Source: Antedon mediterranea (taxonomy: Eukaryota; Animalia; Echinodermata). Taken from it: a stretch of DNA of 64,000 nt. Positions within the stretch are counted from its first letter, which is position 1, and each line of letters starts with the position of its first letter. The stretch is taken from positions 20,473,237 through 20,537,236 of the forward strand of contig NC_092672.1 in the NCBI RefSeq assembly GCF_964355755.1, given 5' to 3'. Shown one piece after another: positions 10,983-37,808 of this stretch. The notes under the pieces are model-generated. The model worked only from the letters and a program-made list of their open reading frames with translations. It made no database searches and was not told where the DNA came from. The position numbers and the translations under genes are program-made.

Positions 10983-11149
10983 TTAAAATGGACCTAAAAT
11001 GAATTTTCGATTTTTTTCATTTTGGAATGGTGTTTTGCAGTTAAACAAAACTTTATAAGTTCCTCCATTCGGCCTCACCATTGTTTTCCAGTTAAATAGT
11101 TCCACCAAGTTCTCAAATTAAATGATATGCTTAATGCAAAATGTTGATT

Positions 11150-11656
11150 CATGAACACATTGGTGCATCTATCTGGGATGTATTGTTAGGATGTTAAATG
11201 TATCTGACGCAGTTGATCTTTGATGTGCTTGTCATGAACACATTGGTGCATCTATCTGGGATGTATTGTTAGGATGTTAAATGTATCTGACGCAGTTGAA
11301 CTTTGATGTGCTTGTCATGAACACATTGGTGCATCTATCTAGGATGTATTGTTAGGATGTTAAATGTATCTGACGCAGTTGAACTTTGATGTCCTTGTCA
11401 TGAACACATTGGTGCATCTATCTGGGATGTATTGTTAGGATGTTAAATATACAGTATCTGACGCAGTTGAACTTTGATGTGCTTGTCATGAACACATTGG
11501 TGCATCTATCTGGGATGTATTGTTAGAATGTTAAATGTATCTGACGCAGTTGAACTTTGATGTGCTTGTCATGAACACATTTGTGCATCTATCTGGGATG
11601 TATTGTTAGGATGTTAAATGTATCTGACGCAGTTGAACTTTCATGTGCTTGTCATG
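11150..11656 (+). repeat. 83-bp minisatellite, 6 units
   Basis: Units start at 11150, 11233, 11316, 11399, 11487 and 11570 (CATGAACACATTGGTGCATC...); unit 4 is 5 bp longer. Confidence 0.95.
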
Positions 11657-13397
11657 CTTCCATGATTTTTAACGATTGTTGTCCACTATCTTGCATACCA
11701 TCATTAAAGGACGTTTTCTTGCATGTGCCATGAAGTCATATGATCCCTCATAGACTGTACGTTACGACAGAGTAATTAAATTGTCCGAATGTGGTTAAAC
11801 AACTTTTATATTTTTTCTAAACATCTAATAACATATTTTATTGTTACTGTATCTTGAAATATTATAAAAATAAATTACAGCCTATTATATGCAATTGCTA
11901 TCATTTAAAATATTCATGCGATCTCAAACAGTATCAAATCAAATTTATTTATGATAGAAATTTCATGATAGATTGATAATCTTTTTGAAATTGGTCTATA
12001 TAAATGTTTGGTTATTATTATTATTGTAGAATTTACAAAAGCAACAAACAATGAACGTTTAACTTTTTTTTTAATTTGCGAATTTTCTGACTTGCTGTAT
12101 TAATTTATTATGAAGCAAAGTACAGAATATAACTGTTTATAATATACTTAATAGTAGCCTCATTTATTTGTATCAAAATATGCTTCAATTAAGATGCCTA
12201 TGGGCTGACTCAGTAGCCGGTTATCTAATGTATACATTTTAGTTTTCTTATAGTTGTTTAACTTCATAGGTAGAATAATCATGTTGTCATGCTGTATGTC
12301 ATTGAATTGAATTGCTACATATATAGAACAACTTTATTAGTTTCTTTCATATGATCATTATCTTTTGTTTTTCCTGTAAACATTCAGTTGGTTAGATTTT
12401 GTCTTGTCTCTGATTATTAACTACTAATGACTTGTTTGATAATGGATTTATTCAATACCTAATTGCATATAGTAATAACATTACTGTTATCATCTTTTTT
12501 GATTTTTGCATTATATTTGGTTTTATAGTCAAACCTGTTTCAAGAGCATTATTCAACATGCATATAGATTCACGAAATGTAAAATTGTCATAATAAAAAT
12601 CATAAAGAAACCTATGTTGGATCGCATTGTACTTTATTTCACCTGTTTTTAACTGTACATGAGACAGTATGCGTTTTAAAATGGAATCCCAGAGTTCAGC
12701 TGGACTTGTTACATGATTTTTGCTGGTGGTCTAGAGCTGAATAAAAACAGTACCGGTATTAGTAAAATGTTTGGAATAATAGTGCAATTTCTGGACATAC
12801 AGAGATTCCCAAATTCCGAACCTTGTACGTGGGCTAATTTACATTTAAATCAGAGCCGAAACTAGCCCTTGATCCTCACAGTGCCTCTCTGTATTAAACT
12901 ACAAAATGATAAAATATCATCTCAAACCAATCTATTGAAAATGTAAAATCAAATCTGATAAACTCAACTAATTTTAAACTGATGATGCAATTTCTTGACT
13001 TAAGTTGTAGATTGTAGGATACCTTCCAAGCCATGTATGATAATGACATGATTTTAATCAAACATCTTTATTTTATTAATACTTTGTATGAACCTCATCT
13101 TATTCAGTGTTTGAGTATTTTTAATAATTCCAGGTAAAAATACATGTACAAAAGATCTTAACCAATCATTGTTTTTACATAAGGTACCTTGATACACCTA
13201 CCTAAAATGGTAATTCACGTTGGTTTGTAGTTCTAATCAACTATATGATAAAAACAAAGAAAACCTATGGTGTAAATTTTACAGAATATATTGAATTGCC
13301 CTGGTTATCAGATAAAAGTGTTGGTCTTTTGTACAACAATTTGCATTCAAGTATTAATATAGAAAAAGCATTATATATTTTAGATTTGTTTAGGTTA

Positions 13398-14481
13398 TTA
13401 GAGGAAGGGATAGTATATAGGTTGAGTTTAAAGCCACAATGTGCAGATGATCCCAATGATTGCTTCATTCTTTGCCATTGTGATGAGCTGTCAACATTAG
13501 AGAAAGGGATAGTATATAGGTTGAGTTTAAAGCCACAATCTGCAGATGATCCCAATGATTGCTTCATTCTTTGCCATTGTGATGAGCTGTCAAAATTAGA
13601 GGAAGGGATAGTATTTAGGTTGAGTTTAAGGCCACAATCTGCAGATGATCCCAATGATTGCTTCATTCTTTGCCATTGTGATGAGCTGTCAAATTAGAGG
13701 AAGGGATAGTATTTAGGTTGAGTTTAAAGCCACAATCTGCAGATGATCCCAATGATTGCTTCATTCTTTGCCATTGTGATGAGCTGTCAACATTAGAGAA
13801 AGGGATAGTATATAGGTTGAGTTTAAAGCCACAATCTGCAGATGATCCCAATGATTGCTTCATTCTTTGCCATTGTGATGAGCTGTCAAAATTAGAGGAA
13901 GGGATAGTATTTAGGTTGAGTTTAAAGCCACAATCTGCAGATGATCCCAATGATTGCTTCATTTTTTGCCATTGTGATGAGCTGTCAAATTAGAGGAAGG
14001 GATAGTATTTAGGTTGAGTTTAAAGCCACAATCTGCAGATGATCCCAATGATTGCTTCATTCTTTGCCATTGTGATGAGCTGTCAACATTAGAGGAAGGG
14101 ATAGTATTTAGGTTGAGTTTAAAGCCACAATCTGCAGATGATCCCAATGATTGCTTCATTCTTTGCCATTGTGATGAGCTGTCAACATTAGAGGAAGGGA
14201 TAGTATTTAGGTTGAGTTTAAAGCCACACTCTGCAGATGATCCCAATGATTGCTTCATTCTTTGCCATTGTGATGAGCTGTCAACATTAGAGGAAGGGAT
14301 AGTATTTAGGTTGAGTTTAAAGCCACAATCTGCAGATGATCCCAATGATTGCTTCATTCTTTGCCATTGTGATGAGCTGTCAACATTAGAGGAAGGGATA
14401 GTATTTAGGTTGAGTTTAAAGCCACAATCTGCAGATGATCCCAATGATTGCTTCATTCTTTGCCATTGTGATGAGCTGTCA
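13398..14481 (+). repeat. 99-bp minisatellite, about 11 units
   Basis: Unit TTAGAGGAAGGGATAGTATTTAGG...GAGCTGTCAACA; units 3 and 6 are 98 bp; explains the repetitive ORFs on both strands. Confidence 0.95.
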
Positions 14482-17322: not shown

Positions 17323-17645
17323 CTGACTAGCACTGTAAGTAGAAAAGCTTTTCTTTACACAATAGTTTGCATTCTGGCTAACTATTTCAAAATAAAATTG
17401 ATTATACTGTAGATGATATAGTTAGTATAATCTATTTTATAGTTTAGAATTAAAGTATACTTTGATCATGAGCATAAGAATAGTTTACACAACAATACAT
17501 TTACAATTCTTTGTAGAAATAATCATTTAAAATTGATATTTGTTTTTAGAAAAATTATTTTCAACATTGACAAAATATTAACTTTGATTAAATTAAGGAT
17601 ATTTATAAGATTATTAATGAAAACATTTCTTCTGGTTTTGATTCG

Positions 17646-17794
17646 TATATTGATATGTAGTTCTTTGATAGTAAACCAGTTATGTAAACTTACGTTTGCA
17701 AGACAGTTTCGTCAAGCTGACACCTAGATGAAACTGTCTTGCAAACGTAAGTTTACATAACTGGTTTACTATCAAAGAACTACATATCAATATA
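17646..17794. repeat. Perfect 65-bp-arm inverted repeat (hairpin)
   Basis: 17646-17710 is the exact reverse complement of 17730-17794; 19-nt spacer. Confidence 0.95.
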
Positions 17795-17884
17795 AGATTA
17801 TTAGTCATTTTTTGTGTGTGTTTAGATATTAAGAAATGATGTACATGTTTTGTAACCTTGATTATTATTTAATATTTTCAATAG

Positions 17885-23308: not shown

Positions 23309-24494
23309 AATAGTGCAACACAATATCTAGAAATTGATGTACAGATGACAATACATGTCAGAACAAATACTCAGAGGTACATTATAGCATTTATGTTATA
23401 AGAGTTTAGTTAATAGTACAACACAATATCTAGAAATTAATGTACAGATGACATGTCAGAACAAATACTCAGAGGTACATTATAGCATTTATGTTATAAG
23501 AGTTTAGTTAATAGTACAACACACTATCTATAAATTGATGTACAGATGACATGTCAGAACAAATACTCAGAGGTACATTATAGCATTTATGTTATAAGAG
23601 TTTAGTTAATAGTACAACACAAAATCTAGAAATTGATGTACAGATGACATGTCAGAACAAATACTCAGAGGTACATTATAGCATTTATGTTATAAGAGTT
23701 TAGTTAATAGTACAACACAATATCTAGAAATTGATGTACAGATGACATGTCAGAACAAATACTCAGAGGTACATTATAGCATTTATGTTATAAGAGTTTA
23801 GTTAATAGTACAACACAATATCTAGAAATTGATGTACAGATGACATGTCAGAACAAATACTCAGAGGTACATTATAGCATTTATGTTATAAGAGTTTAGT
23901 TAATAGTACAACACAATATCTAGAAATTGATGTACAGATGACATGTCAGAACAAATACTCAGAGGTACATTATAGCATTTATGTTATAAGAGTTTAGTTA
24001 ATAGTACAACACACTATCTATAAATTGATGTACAGATGACATGTCAGAACAAATACTCAGAGGTACATTATAGCATTTATGTTATAAGAGTTTAGTTAAT
24101 AGTACAACACAATATCTAGAAATTGATGTACAGATGACATGTCAGAACAAATACTCAGAGGTACATTATAGCATTTATGTTATAAGAGTTTAGTTAATAG
24201 TACAACACAATATCTAAAAATTGATGTACAGATGACATGTCAGAACAAATACTCAGAGGTACATTATAGCATTTATGTTATAAGAGTTTAGTTAATAGTA
24301 CAACACAATATCTAGAAATTGATGTACAGATGACATGTCAGAACAAATACTCAGAGGTACATTATAGCATTTATGTTATAAGAGTTTAGTTAATAGTACA
24401 ACACAATATCTAGAAATCGATGTACAGATGACATGTCAGAACAAATACTCAGATGTACATTATAGCATTTATGTTATAAGAGTTTAGTTAATAG
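23309..24494 (+). repeat. 98-bp minisatellite, 12 units
   Basis: Unit AATAGTACAACACAATATCTAGAAATTGATG...GAGTTTAGTT with period 98 (first unit 103); very few substitutions. Confidence 0.95.
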
Positions 24495-29708: not shown

Positions 29709-29932
29709 CTAGAATAAAGAATGAAAAAGAGTAGGGGTAAATATATGGTAAATTCAGTTGTGTTGAAAGAATTCTGAACATGACAATAATATGATAATAT
29801 GACATCCAAAGAGGGAGGGAATATCAATGCATACACACATATTTTAAACAGGACGTGGGTCATGTACCCGAACACGTCCGTAAACATCTAGCCTATATAT
29901 ATGGGACAGTTTCAACCCAGCCGGGTCGATTC

Positions 29933-30230
29933 TGTTGTGATTTTAGGTCGGTGCTGGAATGGCCTGGTAATGAAAGCTACTAGGCTTACCTTAACAGTCC
30001 CGCTTGTCCTAAATCACACAAGTATCCGCAAGCAGTAAATCCAAATATCTTGGTCAATTCCGGTTGTGTCCGTTTCTCCTTGGTTCCTGCTTCGAATAGA
30101 TCGGTTCGGCCGGCGTCAAGGCCCCACGTTAACATTTGCATACCCCCTGTATGCAAATCAAGCTATCGGGGCGACGCCCTCGTTCGGTCGGAGGGGTGGT
30201 CTGTTTACCCAGCGGGCGCCGTTCACAACA
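29933..30230 (-). repeat. 3' LTR
   Basis: TGTTGTGA...TCACAACA termini; I see 2 substitutions relative to 37404-37701. Confidence 0.97.
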
Positions 30231-30238
30231 CTCCTCCC
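30231..30238 (-). promoter_or_regulatory. Polypurine tract
   Basis: Minus strand GGGAGGAG immediately before the 3' LTR. Confidence 0.8.
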
Positions 30239-30462: not shown

Positions 30463-33400
30463 CTAATTGTTAACCGAGGACTTGCAGTCCGCACATCGAT
30501 ATAAGTCGATGTCCAAGGCCTCAGACGGTGCAATATTCACACATGCACCATGGTACCACACCTCGCAATAGTCACATTGTATCATAAATGAGCCGGCCCA
30601 GGGCTGGCGACATAGACAATACAACGGTCCTCCTGCATCCGGATCTGTAGGTGAAGAGAGAGGAAGTAAGTTAAAATCAACCAGCCATTTAGGAAGCTGT
30701 CGATCCCGACAAGGCTTCAGCTTGTCATGATTTAAAACCACTGTCTTGTTTCTCAGCTGCACCTGAAATAAACAAGAACTAATAACCTTAGTGATAATAC
30801 CAGGCCCCTTCCAGGGGGGACACAATTTCTTGCACTTCCCCCGAGGGGTAGCGTTGTCCAGAACGTAGACTTTGTCCCCACATTGGTATGGACGTTCCAG
30901 CACTCGAAGATCATAGTCCCGTTTCATCCTCTTCTGAGTCTGCTTTAGCGTATCCCTAGCGATGCCATGGGCATCACGGGTCGCTTTCACCAAATCTGCA
31001 ACGTAGATAGCGGCTTCCTGCTCATCAGTGGACCGGCATTCTCCGAACATGAGATCAGCTGGTAAATTAACCTCTCGGCCCAGCATCAGCATGTTTGGAG
31101 TAAAACCAGTCAAGCGGTTCACCGTGGCGCGTAGTGCACCAGCAATCTGCGGTAGATAGACATCCCAGTCTCGTTGTCTCTTCCCAACGAAGCATCGTAC
31201 AGCATCCATAAGTGTTCGATTAAATCGCTCTACTTGACCATTAGCCGACGGTCGGTAGCTTGTCGTCCGGGTCTTGTGGATCTGTAAAACTTTACATAAA
31301 GATGCAAACAATTCACTCTCAAAATTTCTCCCCTGGTCTGAGTGTAACTGAAAAGGTACACCGAATCTAGAGAAGAAGTCCCTTACTAGGGCTCTAGCGG
31401 TTACCTCCGCAACCTGAGACGGGAGCGGGCTGATCTCAACCCATTTTGTGAATTGGTCGACCATCATAAGAACGTAAATATTCCTCTGTTCAGTTTTTGG
31501 TAACGGGCCGAGGAAATCGATATGTACGCGTTCCATTGGAACGCCGGCCTGGAATTCAGTCAACCGATGTCGACCTTGCCGAGTAGCCTTCTTGCTTCTA
31601 TTACAAATATTGCAAGTCTGTACATACCTCTGTATATCCCCGCCCATACCGTACCAGAAAAACTTCTCCTTCAATCGGAACTTGGTCCGGGCGACCCCTT
31701 GATGACCCGCCGACGGCAAATCATGATGTAACCTAAAAGCTACGGCGTGTAGCTCCTTGGGCAACACAAGTAGTCGTCCGGTACCCTCTGCTTGGTTGAT
31801 GAACAGTATACCTGCTTCCGTGAGATGCAAGCGTTGCCTGTTCAGCCAGTAGTGTTTGGTGGCAGCGCTGGAGATAAACAGCTGATTCTCGGAGGGTTCC
31901 CCATTCCGCAACCAGTCCAGAACAGGTGCCAAGTCAGGATCACTCGTTTGATGTTGCCGTAGCTCATCCAGTGAGTAACCCCAACACTCGGCTTCCTTCG
32001 GCCGTAGCTGTACTGCAGCCACTCGTCCACCATCATCGTCCTGTAGGAAAGAAAACTGAATCGTACCGTTAGTAGCAGTCCGTGATACCTCTATACTTAC
32101 TTGTCCACCGGGGTCCCAAGGAACATCGTCCCCTGGCAGAGTACCCTCCAGGTGGTCCACGGCTACCTGGTGTACGTGCACGATGGGCACAACGTCGTCC
32201 ACTTCATCCTGGAACGTTGACCATCTCGCATCCGCTCGTTGACAGTACGAACAGCCCCCACAGGGAAGCCCTTCAAGCGCAGGCCGTTCGTGGCTACTGT
32301 CATGAGTTTCGGGTCGGCGAGACAGAGCATCAGCGTTGCCATGGTGTTGCCCTCGGTGGTGTTCAATCAACAGGTGGTACTGGCTCAACTCCTCGATCCA
32401 CCGAGCGAGTTGCCCCTGTGGCTGCTTGAAGTTGAGGAGCCAGGTCAGGCTGTTGTGATCAGTCCGCACTCTAAAAGGTCTGCCCAGAAGGTAGTGCCTA
32501 AAATGCCTTGTCATGAACACAATTGCTAGCAACTCCTTGCGTGTAGTGCAATAGTTCCGTTGTTCATGAGTTAGACGAGCACTTGCGTATGCAATTACCT
32601 TCTCCTTACCTTCCTGCACCTGGAGCAGCTCGCCTCCTAGCGCTTGATCCGAAGCGTCGACATCCAGAATGAATTCATCAGTCCCGTTCGGCAAGGCGAG
32701 TAGAGGAGGTTTAACGAGAGCAGCTTTCAGGTCGGTGAACGCTTGTTGTTGTTCCTCATCCCAGTGAAACTTCACCTCTTTTTTAGTGAGTTCATATAGA
32801 GGTGCAGCTAAACCAGCAAAGTTCTCAATGAACTCTCTATGGTAATTAGCCAACCCCAAGAACTGCTGTACTTCTCTCAGATTGGTAGGTGTCGGCCAGT
32901 CTTGAACAGCCTTTATATCCGAATCGGACACTGCCACCGTATCCTCCCCAACGATTCGCCCTAAAAACTCAACCTGTTTCTGAAAGAAAACACACTTTTT
33001 AGGTTTAAGTTTAAAGTTGTTAACACGAAATTGCTGCAGAACCTGAGAGAGGTTGCTGAGATGATCTTCAAACGTTTTACCTAGCACGACAATATCATCG
33101 AGAAATGCCAATACCGTATCCCACGCCAATCCCCGCAGCACCAAACCCATGGCACGGGAGAAGGTTGCAGGACAATTGGTAAGACCAAATGGCATTTTCA
33201 CGAATTCATACAGGCCATGCTTGGTGATAAACGCTGTCTTCTTACGGTCTTCATCCTTCATCTTAATCTGCCAGTACCCCCAAATCGCGTCCAGTTTAGA
33301 AAACCAGATATTCCCCGACAGTGTGTCAAGGCAATCACGAATCAGAGGTAATGGATACGCATCTTTAGTCGTGATGTTGTTGAGAGCTCGATAGTCAATG

Positions 33401-34722
33401 CAAAAGCGCACAGAACCATCGCGCTTCCGGACCAACACAGGCGGTGACGCCCATTCAGACATGGATGGTTGAATAACACCAGCCTCCAACATCTTCTTTA
33501 TCTCCTTTTCCTCCTCCCCCACAAAGCGCAGAGGAGTATGGCGGAGTCGTTGCCTGATCGGTGAGGCATCTCCAGTGTCGATGCTGTGTTCAATATCACC
33601 AAAGGTGCCAATGTCGAACTGATGAGCGGCGAAGACATCCTGGTAATCAACCAATAGTTTAGTGAGCGCGTCAGCCTCTTCACCTGAGAGATTAGATCTC
33701 GAAGAGTCCAACATGCCCACTAGGTGCGCCGGCACCCCCTCGGGTTGGTTACCGTCATCGTCCGCTTGATTCGACAAAGCATCCTCGGACGGAGTCACCC
33801 CCGTCTGGAACACACTCACCCCTTCAGCTTCCCTGGCCGTACCTATCTGTCTACCCTTTTTCATAGTAAGATAGTGATCAGATGTGTTGATGACACAGAT
33901 GCATGGCGCATCAGTGCGTAGATGTAAAGTTGCCGGTATCGCCACATCGTCAGTAGTTGGAACTGGCTCTATAAAGAAATCAGGCATAGATACATTGTTA
34001 GTCACAAGTTTACATTTAACATGAGCGGCTGAGTGAGGAGGAATTACTCTCCGTTTAGCCACCGTTACCTGGGCAACCCTAGGTTCCACCGGTGAATCCC
34101 CTCTTAGAGATATGGTACTGCCCCCAATTGCCAAAAGCAAATTCCCACAATCGATAACGGCTCCCTGTGGATGAAGAAAATCACCACCCAAGAGCATATC
34201 GTCATTGATGGGGGCAACATAAAAGAATTCATGGTACTCTTTGGTTCCCAATGTAAACTGTAGCGGCCCCACCTTCGACCCTGGCATAGATGTCCCCCTC
34301 CCTGCCAAAGTAAAGGACAGGGTGGACACCACAGGTGGTGCCGGATCTAGACTTTTATAAACCTTATCGGATAGTATGGTAAAATCCGCTGCAGTATCCA
34401 CGACTGCGTCAATTTTGGTACCATTGACAAAAGCAGTTGCATGCAACGCATTCAATGATTTTACCCTATTGATAACAATCCGGGTTTGCGTCTCTTCAGT
34501 TTTGGTTGTCGTCGGTGTAGATGATTCAATCAGCCCTGAGCTAATTGCAGACGGCTCAATGATCGTCACAGGATCCGGTGCTACCCCCTCTGTATTTACA
34601 GGCTTGGCCATCGGGCCTAGCTTGGGGATAGTCGACGAACCATCCTCTTTCTGGCCAGCTTCCGGAACCGGGTTAGGTCGTCGGCCCTCTGACCCAACCC
34701 TTACTCGTTTAACGGATCCGGC
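30463..34722 (-). CDS. pol: Pol polyprotein: protease, RT, RNase H, integrase, C-terminal PHD finger
   Basis: Frame open from 34722 (first ATG 34611). Motifs: VVDTAA (PR); RFCIDYRALN, MPFGL, FLDD (RT); DVDAS, TRKELLA, ADALSR (RH); H-H-C-C, HIDFLGP, SDQG, VERFNRTL, WKGP (IN); C4HC3 PHD. Confidence 0.97.
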   Translation of the reverse strand, partial: AGSVKRVRVGSEGRRPNPVPEAGQKEDGSSTIPKLGPMAKPVNTEGVAPDPVTIIEPSAISSGLIESSTPTTTKTEETQTRIVINRVKSLNALHATAFVNGTKIDAVVDTAADFTILSDKVYKSLDPAPPVVSTLSFTLAGRGTSMPGSKVGPLQFTLGTKEYHEFFYVAPINDDMLLGGDFLHPQGAVIDCGNLLLAIGGSTISLRGDSPVEPRVAQVTVAKRRVIPPHSAAHVKCKLVTNNVSMPDFFIEPVPTTDDVAIPATLHLRTDAPCICVINTSDHYLTMKKGRQIGTAREAEGVSVFQTGVTPSEDALSNQADDDGNQPEGVPAHLVGMLDSSRSNLSGEEADALTKLLVDYQDVFAAHQFDIGTFGDIEHSIDTGDASPIRQRLRHTPLRFVGEEEKEIKKMLEAGVIQPSMSEWASPPVLVRKRDGSVRFCIDYRALNNITTKDAYPLPLIRDCLDTLSGNIWFSKLDAIWGYWQIKMKDEDRKKTAFITKHGLYEFVKMPFGLTNCPATFSRAMGLVLRGLAWDTVLAFLDDIVVLGKTFEDHLSNLSQVLQQFRVNNFKLKPKKCVFFQKQVEFLGRIVGEDTVAVSDSDIKAVQDWPTPTNLREVQQFLGLANYHREFIENFAGLAAPLYELTKKEVKFHWDEEQQQAFTDLKAALVKPPLLALPNGTDEFILDVDASDQALGGELLQVQEGKEKVIAYASARLTHEQRNYCTTRKELLAIVFMTRHFRHYLLGRPFRVRTDHNSLTWLLNFKQPQGQLARWIEELSQYHLLIEHHRGQHHGNADALSRRPETHDSSHERPALEGLPCGGCSYCQRADARWSTFQDEVDDVVPIVHVHQVAVDHLEGTLPGDDVPWDPGGQVSIEVSRTATNGTIQFSFLQDDDGGRVAAVQLRPKEAECWGYSLDELRQHQTSDPDLAPVLDWLRNGEPSENQLFISSAATKHYWLNRQRLHLTEAGILFINQAEGTGRLLVLPKELHAVAFRLHHDLPSAGHQGVARTKFRLKEKFFWYGMGGDIQRYVQTCNICNRSKKATRQGRHRLTEFQAGVPMERVHIDFLGPLPKTEQRNIYVLMMVDQFTKWVEISPLPSQVAEVTARALVRDFFSRFGVPFQLHSDQGRNFESELFASLCKVLQIHKTRTTSYRPSANGQVERFNRTLMDAVRCFVGKRQRDWDVYLPQIAGALRATVNRLTGFTPNMLMLGREVNLPADLMFGECRSTDEQEAAIYVADLVKATRDAHGIARDTLKQTQKRMKRDYDLRVLERPYQCGDKVYVLDNATPRGKCKKLCPPWKGPGIITKVISSCLFQVQLRNKTVVLNHDKLKPCRDRQLPKWLVDFNLLPLSSPTDPDAGGPLYCLCRQPWAGSFMIQCDYCEVWYHGACVNIAPSEALDIDLYRCADCKSSVNN
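34670..34713 (-). promoter_or_regulatory. -1 ribosomal frameshift signal
   Basis: G_UUA_AAC in the gag frame inside the 22-nt gag/pol overlap, 6-nt spacer, 10-bp stem GGGUUGGGUC/GACCUAACCC; pol is in the -1 frame. Confidence 0.8.
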
Positions 34723-36578
34723 TCATTGCCACTAACCTGACGCAAACGGCTCGCTAATCTCGGACACTCCCTGCGGAAGTGTCCCACCTCCTTACATTCA
34801 AAACAAGCCAGTTCGCCTGGTTTCAGGAAACGCATGAGCTGATCCAATTGATTCCGCATGGCGGCAATCTCCGTGTTCACGGTGTTCTCCACCCGTCCCA
34901 GATTGGTATTCAACGTCTGGAAATTACCCTCCACAGTAGCCAAACGGGCTTCTGTAGTAGGAGTATTGTTGGTGGGTGGCACCGACGTCACAGTTCGAGG
35001 AACCCAAGCTGGTGCTGGCCTTTGAAACGTTACACGGTTTCCCCTCATAGGCCTCCCTCGCACCTGCTGAATGGACACCTCATCGACAGTTTCACCCTCG
35101 GTATCGTCCTGGTCTTCTGAAGGTAGCTGAAAAGATAGTGGGGGTGCAAAAGAAGTACGGACCGTGGACCTAACATGAGGTTTCACGGTATCCTTAACCT
35201 TACTCTTACGTTTACTATATAGCCCCCTATAACTATCATATTTTTCAAACATCCTAATAGCTCTGGGAATAGTTGAACAGTGCTTGTGCATGACGTGCCT
35301 ACCTACTTCTGCATCCCTGCACCCAATACAAAACCTAACTACGGCCTGCTCTTGGATCCACTCCTTGGGCAAATCCTTAAACGCCTTTCTAGTCAAGGTT
35401 AGCACTCTATCTCCCCATTCCTCTATAGTCTCTCCCTCATTTTGCGTAGCAGTCTCTAATTTAGCTTGGAGGACTGCGGGGAGCTCGTCCTCACTAAAAC
35501 GTCGGTTGAAAGCTTTAATGATCTGCCTAAAGCCTAAATCAGCGTCCATTTCTATCAGATTCACATAGAACTCAGCCGCCGCCCCGTCTAAACACCAAGT
35601 AAGGACGTCCTTACTTTCACGGTTTGTGAGTTCCTGCTCCTCTATAAATGAAGCCAACCGCCGCTTAAAAAAGGACCAGTTGTCTCCCCTCCCCCTAAAC
35701 GTTAGAGACCTAGGTATATCTTTTTTACGCATCCTCCTACGTTCTACAAAATCCTGCCGGCCTTCATAGTGCCTGACTCTCGGGATAGCCCTAAGACACT
35801 CCACTGCTGTCCTAGCCCCTGCACTATGTCTATCCGACTGTCTATCCGACTCTCTACTCCTGCTACTATCAGTATCAGCACCATCCCCACTAAGGTCACT
35901 ATCGCTGGCCGATGGAGATCGCCGGCGAGCCCTAGTTTTAGACCTAGCGGTTTTAGATAGTCTCCTGGGGAGTCTTTCCTCCTCGTCCTCCCTAGAGCTA
36001 AAACACGAGTCTAAGGTTATCGGAGATGGCTTTTTGATGTAGCTCCTACGTTGTGTTGACCTATTCTTACTCCTATCCTGGTCAGAACGCCCAGCGAAGG
36101 TGGATGGCGTATAAGCCCCAAGCCCACCTTCGAGATAACGAGGATCACTAGCAGGTCCTGTAGTATAATACGTACCCGGTACGTCTAATAAAGGAGTAGC
36201 CTGGGGCGATGAGAGGACGTGGTATCGACCACTATGGCCCCCGTCATTTTTCCCCCGATATGCCCCTTCCATACCTACAGATTGTGAGACCTGCGACCCC
36301 TTTCTGGCCGCTCTATTTTGCTTCTCCACTAGAGGTGACACATTATCAATCATCTGGCCTACGCCTCCCCCTAAACTCGGATTCGGCTGAAAATCCAGGT
36401 AGTCCACCAACCTGGCAGTACCAGCTACTCCGTGTATCTGATTAATATTAGAGGGCGTAATGTTGCCATGGGTAGCCCGCCATTTAATTATTCTAGTTGC
36501 TCGTTTCTTCCCTACATTAGGGACTCCATGAAGATCTTGCACTGGGCAAAAGTTAACTAGAACCTTATTAGACGACAT
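34701..36578 (-). CDS. gag: Gag (625 aa): N-terminal helix-hairpin-helix domain, capsid-like region, CCHC zinc knuckle
   Basis: Upstream of pol; F.G.G.NW..F...L...L.G.A capsid pattern; CFECKEVGHFRREC knuckle (34764-34805); N-terminus VNFCPVQDLHGVPNVGKKRATRIIKWRATHG. Confidence 0.95.
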   Translation of the reverse strand: MSSNKVLVNFCPVQDLHGVPNVGKKRATRIIKWRATHGNITPSNINQIHGVAGTARLVDYLDFQPNPSLGGGVGQMIDNVSPLVEKQNRAARKGSQVSQSVGMEGAYRGKNDGGHSGRYHVLSSPQATPLLDVPGTYYTTGPASDPRYLEGGLGAYTPSTFAGRSDQDRSKNRSTQRRSYIKKPSPITLDSCFSSREDEEERLPRRLSKTARSKTRARRRSPSASDSDLSGDGADTDSSRSRESDRQSDRHSAGARTAVECLRAIPRVRHYEGRQDFVERRRMRKKDIPRSLTFRGRGDNWSFFKRRLASFIEEQELTNRESKDVLTWCLDGAAAEFYVNLIEMDADLGFRQIIKAFNRRFSEDELPAVLQAKLETATQNEGETIEEWGDRVLTLTRKAFKDLPKEWIQEQAVVRFCIGCRDAEVGRHVMHKHCSTIPRAIRMFEKYDSYRGLYSKRKSKVKDTVKPHVRSTVRTSFAPPLSFQLPSEDQDDTEGETVDEVSIQQVRGRPMRGNRVTFQRPAPAWVPRTVTSVPPTNNTPTTEARLATVEGNFQTLNTNLGRVENTVNTEIAAMRNQLDQLMRFLKPGELACFECKEVGHFRRECPRLASRLRQVSGNEPDPLNE

Positions 36579-37388
36579 GATCTAAAAAGTGTCTCTCTTC
36601 TATTGGGTTGTTATGCTCCTAAATCTAGTTACAGTGTATGGCAGATGTTATTAAGCAAAGAGTACGATACAAATTAAAATACCGCCAGACGTAATAAAAA
36701 TTACAGGCCCAACAGTAGAATAAAATATCGTCAATGCAGTAACACACACACAATATTGCAAAATGGTTGTTGGAGATGCAAATATAATAAAATATTTCAC
36801 CAGCAAACCTGCAATAAGAAACAACTAGATTATTCAAAAAGACGTCAATACAGTTTAACAACACTTACCACTAAACCTTCCCCCGATGCAAAGAAAGGAG
36901 AGCGATAATGCCACTGTGAGGTTAACACAATAATACGCACAGCCAATATAATTTCTCAAGATGAAAAACCTGACTGACGGACGAAAAAGATGTTATCAAT
37001 AAAAAACAATCAAATTTAAAATTAGTGGTGCCACTCAGTTCAACGGCCACGCCTAGTATCCCACCAGGTGATACGGCCTAGTAAACTGCCCACTAATCCT
37101 TCAACTATAGCAAAATAAATACAACTCCCGGTACGCATCGACTACCCCGTCGATACGCTAATCAGCAAGCATCCAAATGCCACAATACTGCGTGATTAAC
37201 TTTACCGGTATGTTATACCTTCAATAAATATACCAACTTCAATAAACTAACAAATGCACCGTAAGTACAATAAGTTAATAATTTCAGCAGAGGACGAAAT
37301 ACCTCGCAATCAACCCGATCACGTTAAGAATGCCAGCTGGCAATCAAGGCACCCGCCTCCCCACCAAAAAAAAAGATTTCCGAGCTTT

Positions 37389-37402
37389 TGCTCGCAGCGC
37401 CA
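37389..37402 (-). promoter_or_regulatory. Primer-binding site, probably tRNA-Ser
   Basis: TGGCGCTGCGAGCA one nt after the 5' LTR; complementary to a ...TGCTCGCAGCG-CCA end, similar to animal tRNA-Ser(CGA/TGA) 3' ends. Confidence 0.8.
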
Positions 37403-37403
37403 A

Positions 37404-37701
37404 TGTTGTGATTTTAGGTCAGTGCTGGAATGGCCTGGTAATGAAAGCTACTAGGCTTACCTTAACAGTCCCGCTTGTCCTAAATCACACAAGTATCCGC
37501 AAGCAGTAAATCCAAATATCTTGGTCAATTTCGGTTGTGTCCGTTTCTCCTTGGTTCCTGCTTCGAATAGATCGGTTCGGCCGGCGTCAAGGCCCCACGT
37601 TAACATTTGCATACCCCCTGTATGCAAATCAAGCTATCGGGGCGACGCCCTCGTTCGGTCGGAGGGGTGGTCTGTTTACCCAGCGGGCGCCGTTCACAAC
37701 A
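37404..37701 (-). repeat. 5' LTR
   Basis: 298 bp, TG...CA, adjacent PBS. Confidence 0.97.
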
Positions 37702-37808
37702 ATTCGCCCCTCTATATGGATAGGCAAACTCTACACTCTCTCGCGACAATATGCTAGCCTACAGTTTTGTTACTTCTATATGAACATTTTTACCGAACAA
37801 TTACTCAC

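Follow-up and report, generated by a model that had tools for sequence, protein, structure and literature searches.

A ComEA-type helix-hairpin-helix domain at the N terminus of a Ty3/gypsy Gag protein from the crinoid Antedon mediterranea

The route by which particles of LTR retrotransposons reach host chromosomes is understood in few cases; those Gag tethers that are known come from retroviruses and are short peptides that bind histones. Gag-borne chromatin tethers of this kind are described for MLV p12 and foamy-virus Gag, and in the available text of both sources they are nucleosome-mediated (PMC6021111, PMC6282019). The Ty3 particle is described, in the part of PMC6525542 at hand, as a shell of 540 CA copies with the CA N terminus pointing outward and NC and the genome inside. 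Helix-hairpin-helix (HhH) domains are best documented in other settings. Residues G60, K62, K63 and R71 of Vibrio cholerae ComEA matter for DNA uptake according to the accessible portion of PMC3879209, and ComEA lacking either HhH loses its co-localisation with DNA (excerpts of PMC3879209 and PMC9747964). Isolated (HhH)2 pairs of EEPD1 show no stable DNA binding in the available sections of PMC12988330; binding grows with copy number and four domains are needed. Among mobile elements, MolGy exemplifies a named gypsy clade (PMC6238403), and a PHD finger is carried by the Ginger1 transposase (PMC2836005).

The window analysed here comprises 64,000 nucleotides of A. mediterranea genomic DNA (NC_092672.1, positions 20,473,237 to 20,537,236 of the forward strand). 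Positions are counted from its first letter, and features of the element lie on the minus strand unless indicated otherwise. The element is bounded by a 5′ LTR (37404..37701) and a 3′ LTR (29933..30230), each 298 bp long with TG...CA ends and differing by 2 mismatches, and is flanked by a 4 bp target-site duplication, ATTC (left copy 29929..29932, plus strand; right copy 37702-37705). The primer-binding site (37385..37402) starts with TGG one base past the 5′ LTR and is presumably tRNA-Ser-like; a polypurine tract (30231..30238) adjoins the 3′ LTR. A leader of 825 nt with two upstream ATGs (36579-37403) runs from the 5′ LTR to the gag ORF (34701..36578; 625 aa, intact, ATG at 36578). The pol ORF (30463..34722; 1419 aa stop to stop, open) is in the -1 frame relative to gag and overlaps it by 22 nt; Pfam gave the order protease-RT-RNase H-integrase-PHD, and Ty3 was the best PDB match of the RT-RH region (E 4e-70). 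The element belongs to Ty3/gypsy by its paired LTRs, primer-binding site, polypurine tract and target-site duplication, by its pol order and Ty3-like RT, and by a Ty3/Arc-type capsid with a CCHC knuckle. Because the LTRs are near-identical and the frames open, it is regarded as a young insertion.

The overlap of gag and pol (34701-34722, minus strand) contains G-TTA-AAC immediately before the gag stop and a 10 bp stem 6 nt downstream, and is likely a -1 frameshift site. The stability of the stem is no greater than that of shuffled sequences (z -1.05). Many related Gags likewise terminate near Leu-Asn.

Other repeats were recorded in the window. Three tandem arrays with units 95-97% alike are present at 11149-11656 (83 bp, 6 copies), 13397-14481 (99 bp, 11 copies) and 23309-24494 (98 bp, 12 copies). 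Dispersed repeat pairs occur at 9729-10368/57852-58490, 26345-27044/51835-52534 and 24437-24868/63371-63884, one of them inverted, with about 97% identity across 640 nt; they are probably copies of non-autonomous transposons. A near-perfect palindrome of 155 nt (17643-17797) has 77-nt arms that are 95% alike and 1 nt apart.

The 625-residue ORF was identified as Gag by Pfam matches to Retrotrans_gag, PNMA, Ty3_capsid and zf-CCHC. Its capsid (CA; residues about 281-460, 35199..35738) was recognised by the first three of these families and by Foldseek, with the PNMA2 capsid at E 1.3e-4 and dArc1 at E 5.6e-3; the CCHC zinc knuckle of the nucleocapsid (NC) occupies residues 591-606 (34761..34808). 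Between the two, the full-length model contains a predicted helix of 43 residues (542-584, 34827-34955), possibly a coiled coil. Upstream of CA, a long, mostly disordered linker, rich in Ser and charged residues by composition (residues 68-280, 35739..36377), is preceded by the N-terminal domain with which this report is concerned and which is called the head below. In the full-length model the head (residues 1-70) reached a pLDDT of 82-96 by block and the capsid was folded at 285-455; pLDDT was below 50 over most of 73-272, as expected of disorder.

The original prediction had assigned a ComEA-like domain to the segment 36566..36429, minus strand. This segment does correspond to codons 5-50 of the ORF and the quoted peptide is present, its final V being residue 51. 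A domain was indeed found there, with limits that differ from those proposed: by AlphaFold2 and structural matching the folded domain, a ComEA-type (HhH)2 domain, extends over residues of about 4-67 (36569-36378, minus strand), with hairpin 1 at residues 19-23, a remodelled hairpin 2 at about 48-53 and a closing strand at 61-63.

The assignment to HHH_3/ComEA was supported by profile and by predicted fold. Residues 1-70 alone matched Pfam HHH_3 with 27.3 bits (E 3.8e-6), just over the curated cut-off of 27; the whole Gag scored 22.3 bits, under that cut-off. Searched against the PDB as a single sequence, the head gave five matches, of which the C-terminal domain of KIF22 was the best (E 0.006) and two ComEA chains were weak. 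With a profile of 54 Gag N-termini the matches were EEPD1 (E 4e-16; domains at 33.1 and 24.4 bits), ComEA (E 1e-12, 1e-10 and 6e-10; 42.6, 35.0 and 30.3 bits), KIF22 (25.5 bits) and, weakly, Tex (E 1e-3), and they cover mostly the first motif only. A chance match was rejected, given what this profile found and a best E of 0.11 for reversed sequences against our own domain HMM.

AlphaFold2, run from 54 aligned heads, gave a model (pLDDT 88) in which two HhH units form a compact ComEA fold. In the widest structure search ComEA (8dss) ranked first (Z 10.1, rmsd 1.4 Å, 63 of 74 residues aligned), followed by Tex (8.9), a ComEA-like protein (7.9), TEFM (6.4), Spt6 (6.0), PsbU (5.9) and KIF22 (5.3). 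The likeness to EEPD1 and to Tex/Spt6 that had been suggested from the letters is thus borne out, by profile for EEPD1 and by structure for the other two. GspK was, like PsbU, among the structural matches at Z of about 5-6, and neither is known to be a DNA binder. BAF was absent among the 50 structural matches listed and among the listed Foldseek matches. Foldseek placed ComEA (E 9e-3) and then KIF22 (E 2e-2) at the top, none reaching E 0.001, and the ESM Atlas offered, as a lead only, HHH_3 clusters at 0.84-0.91 by features. A two-copy complex prediction of the head scored 0.00, a value with no bearing on binding. A search of BFVD structures with the head returned ComEA-like HhH proteins of giant viruses (Indivirus, Klosneuvirus, Yasminevirus; E 6e-3 to 0.2), a possible further donor pool.

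For a comparison at the level of residues, 77 Gag heads were compared with 37 bacterial domains, the non-redundant ones among 109. The heads share a mean pairwise identity of 30%, and the fold-defining residues are kept. Hairpin 1 has h-G in 64/77 Gags and the full G-h-G in 50/77; the Antedon copy reads N-V-G, with Asn for the first Gly. By spacing, its G23, K25, R26 and R34 correspond to G60, K62, K63 and R71 of V. cholerae ComEA. Basic residues at 24-26 are found in 52/77 Gags (26/37 bacterial domains) and at 50-52 in 61/77 (27/37), and Arg34 in 75/77. Hairpin 2 differs: G-h-G is present there in 1/77 Gags versus 31/37 bacterial domains, and the position of ComEA K63/K164 (residue 26) is basic in 6/77 versus 15/37. 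The ending D/E-F/Y at 62-63 is shared by 73/77 Gags and by 0/37 bacterial domains; since the predicted model pairs residues 61-62 with residues 6-7, this motif likely serves core packing. The mean net charge of the head is -0.4 (bacterial domains, -1.1), so that by count there is no strongly basic patch. With G-h-G lost from hairpin 2, one copy of the head probably binds DNA weakly, and because hairpin 2 is remodelled and the K63/K164 position rarely basic, it is doubtful that a single copy binds DNA as strongly as ComEA. To judge from sequence, the predicted DNA-contact hairpin has been kept and binding by a single copy is probably weak.

The distribution of the head was examined by an index-free search with the whole Gag, which returned 1536 proteins at E≤0.001; the best 150 of the 1536 were analysed, a ranking that favours head carriers because the query included the head. 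An HMM of the head, built from the same Gag sequences and therefore partly circular, found it in 86 of these best 150 relatives. By the same HMM it was found in 84/96 Gags with at least 140 residues before CA, in 2/6 with 100-139 residues and in 0/48 of the shorter ones. A Pfam scan of 86 Gags, listing five families for each at E≤0.05, gave HHH_3 in no fewer than 57. The head begins within the first 30 residues in 79/87 Gags (the Antedon Gag included), and the linker from head to CA ranges from 64 to 654 aa among the relatives. The original prediction was staked on an HhH profile or structure match and on conservation of the segment in homologous Gags; all of these were found. The head is a lineage trait. 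A one-off fusion was rejected, and so was bacterial contamination, the head continuing into CA in one reading frame between the two LTRs of the element.

An organism name is attached to eight of the 30 proteins checked for one. Among these, head-carrying Gags belong to Antedon, Anneissia, Lytechinus, Pinctada and Dreissena (crinoids, a sea urchin and bivalves) and head-less related Gags to Anneissia, Mytilus and one bacterial bin. The last, P0048, is filed under Sedimenticola sp. and is probably host DNA in the assembly. A quick, unrooted capsid tree of 99 rows, from which 52 short or partial rows were excluded, contained 12 Gags without the head; these were scattered (11 changes versus a shuffled mean of 11.5). 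As far as an unrooted tree can indicate, such a pattern is consistent with a head present in the ancestor and lost from time to time, or with gene models cut short. One head-less Gag, P0004, has a CA that differs very little from that of the carrier P0005 of the same species, which suggests that P0004 is a truncated gene model. Head and CA identities co-vary over the 77 Gags (rho 0.30; 0/999 permutations as high), and for 39/77 the Gag with the most similar head also ranks within the top three by capsid similarity. In the head, with 48 synonymous and 153 non-synonymous sites, related copies (35 coding rows among the 40 listed of 146) show 6 synonymous and 5 non-synonymous changes, 3 of the latter within a single codon; in the linker, with 117 and 360 sites, the changes number 10 and 14, respectively. 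The sample is too small and too selective for the two regions to be ranked.

Beyond these proteins the head was rarely encountered. In metagenome contigs it was present in only 1/80 fetched loci, and that locus was without a pol match. Seven loci with an RT 47-54% identical to that of the Antedon element had no head, and the three of them that were scanned had no PHD finger; five loci with a closer capsid gave no head match, four of them being shorter than 2.2 kb and likely incomplete and one consisting of two partial copies. Viral contigs yielded no locus matching the whole pol and one distant locus with RT. A word-index search with Gag residues 1-75 gave no match among 16 candidates, and one with the capsid region gave one protein. 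By its sequence distribution the head marks a sub-lineage and not all gypsy elements. Close kin, with an RT 47-54% identical, have Gags without the head and so would not need HhH tethering. Two head-less related gypsy loci (L007:5912-6793 and L052:7723-9267) carry an extra ORF after pol with a Cys/His zinc-finger-like start. In a FastTree analysis of 69 columns covering solely Gag and bacterial domains, the Gag heads stood apart from the bacterial domains (2 changes versus 31 shuffled), with one long-branch join; a tree of this composition is compatible with a single origin of the Gag heads.

A second accessory module was found at the C terminus of the integrase, where a PHD finger occupies pol residues 1369-1413 (30484..30618; Pfam PHD 32.6 bits, cut-off 24). 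The element is accordingly no chromovirus, which would carry a chromodomain at this place. The finger is closest to the PHDs of PHF8 (E 3.6e-17), PHF2, KDM7A and BPTF. The PHD fingers of PHF8, PHF2 and BPTF read H3K4me3.

We tentatively favour a reading, to which we give somewhat less than an even chance and each functional step of which we infer, that many heads, displayed by long flexible linkers on the exterior of the shell, anchor the particle to the chromosomes of the host through DNA. DNA would be contacted via hairpin 1 and the helix after it. The head would be displayed outside the shell, about 210 residues upstream of CA, if the topology of Ty3 may be borrowed; since Ty3 CA has its N terminus outward and NC and the genome inside, an external position of the head is likely. 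Avidity arising from the Gag lattice would offset the weak binding of single copies, the lattice supplying multivalency, given that EEPD1-type domains need several copies. Docking on chromosomes would then resemble that by MLV p12 or foamy-virus Gag, but on DNA and not on the nucleosome acidic patch, after which the PHD finger of the integrase might bias insertion to H3K4me3 chromatin. Should the protease sever the head from CA, the head would have to stay non-covalently bound, as p12 does. A broader proposal, in which a lineage of Ty3/gypsy elements of marine invertebrates encodes a two-step chromatin targeting of its own, a shell with hundreds of captured ComEA/EEPD1-type heads clamping chromosomes and the PHD finger reading H3K4me3 for site choice, is in our estimate doubtful; PHD and HhH were seen together only in the Antedon element. 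If it were true, a retroelement capsid would be tethered via a folded DNA-binding domain, not via a histone-binding peptide or a host adaptor.

Other functions of the head were weighed against the chromosome tether. A role within the pre-integration complex, where the head would bind the double-stranded cDNA of the element and compact or mask it, in the manner of BAF with retroviruses, so as to block autointegration or DNA sensing, is unlikely, the more so since animal hosts possess a BAF of their own. The head is on every Gag copy and could reach the cDNA after cleavage or uncoating, and BAF does bind dsDNA via an HhH motif and block autointegration, but it bridges DNA as a dimer (available text of PMC3381236), and a head N-terminal of CA would, with the topology of Ty3 described in the accessible part of PMC6525542, likely face away from the cDNA. 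By analogy with Ty3, a chromatin tether suits a position N-terminal of CA better than a BAF-like shield of cDNA. We consider it improbable that RNA or single-stranded nucleic acid is the ligand of the head, as the HhH domains of Tex, Spt6 and TEFM would suggest, and that the head aids capture, export or packaging of genomic RNA: Tex, TEFM and Spt6 took ranks 2, 4 and 5 in the structure search, and the remodelled hairpin 2, with its K/R at 50-52 in 61/77 Gags, could alter the substrate, but ComEA was the clear top match (Z 10.1 versus at most 8.9), the match to Tex by sequence was weak (E 1e-3) and Gag retains its CCHC knuckle for RNA.

A use of the fold for protein docking, be it self-association, CA binding or recruitment of a host factor, in place of nucleic-acid binding has about the same low probability as RNA binding. 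The loss of G-h-G from hairpin 2 and the D/E-F/Y ending that is confined to the Gags would agree with it, as does the sharing of the fold by PsbU and GspK, and (HhH)2 domains of XPF-ERCC1 dimerise according to the excerpted PMC12988330. Against docking, the glycines of hairpin 1 and the basic residues that follow, which contact the backbone in ComEA, are still conserved, and in the predicted model the D-F motif likely packs into the core. That the head is a captured host fragment riding along as a functionless passenger is highly improbable; the 12 scattered Gags without it in the capsid tree would fit such a view, but P0004 suggests a truncated gene model, and the fold-defining residues have been kept at a mean identity of 30% over 77 Gags, in hosts from two phyla, while the linker ranges from 64 to 654 aa.

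No published description of an HhH or ComEA-type head on a retrotransposon Gag was found, although supplements, subscription journals and entries in Repbase or GyDB may hold one; a word look-up for HhH or PHD gave nothing in the main texts of PMC8321522, PMC13524379, PMC6238403 and PMC12440569. The architecture is visible in the precomputed Pfam labels of one public protein. It is real and conserved and apparently undescribed. The presence of the head at the Gag N terminus in at least 86 protein clusters (50% identity), from echinoderms and bivalves, suggests another way of achieving tethering. The head extends the short roster of accessory modules in Gag by one captured from a cellular source, and is a small, easily purified domain to test. 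With HhH on Gag and a histone-reader PHD finger on the integrase, the element lends itself to the question of how targeting is divided between the two proteins.

Compared with the DNA-binding domain of ComEA (HHH_3, PF12836; PDB 8dss, 8dfk, 2duy), the Gag head has the same atypical (HhH)2 fold (1.4 Å over 63 residues), the same I-N start, hairpin 1, Ala and Arg of helix 2 and Gly after helix 2; it differs in a shorter hairpin 2 without G-h-G, in the key lysine, which is mostly absent, and in the family-specific D-F ending. ComEA is a periplasmic DNA-uptake protein, secreted or membrane-anchored in bacteria, whereas the domain described here is fused to a retrotransposon capsid as the N terminus of Gag. 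MLV p12 and the chromatin-binding sequence of foamy-virus Gag resemble the head, in its proposed role, as Gag parts that hold a capsid-containing complex on chromosomes, and p12 likewise lies N-terminal of CA. These are short peptides on the nucleosome acidic patch, as given in the available text of PMC6021111 and PMC6282019, whereas the Antedon head is folded and a predicted DNA binder, and no homology is claimed. In the literature searched, the term helix-hairpin-helix turned up for a protein region of an LTR retrotransposon in a single passage, on the 'H domain' of CERV of Caenorhabditis elegans Cer1; compared by description only, this is a helical hairpin with a leucine zipper shared with Gag, and the accessible part of PMC10309623 states no HhH motif or likeness to ComEA. 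The animal (HhH)2 proteins matched by the Gag-head profile are EEPD1 and the chromokinesin KIF22; EEPD1 carries its domains on flexible linkers and needs multivalency (accessible sections of PMC12988330), whereas Gag has one domain per chain, multiplied by the capsid lattice. With Ty3/gypsy elements (Metaviridae), among which chromoviruses offer the analogue for its integrase tail, the Antedon element shares the LTRs, primer-binding site, polypurine tract and 4 bp target-site duplication, gag followed by PR-RT-RH-IN and a capsid of the PNMA2/Arc type; it differs in the HhH head on Gag and in having a PHD finger, not a chromodomain, on the integrase.
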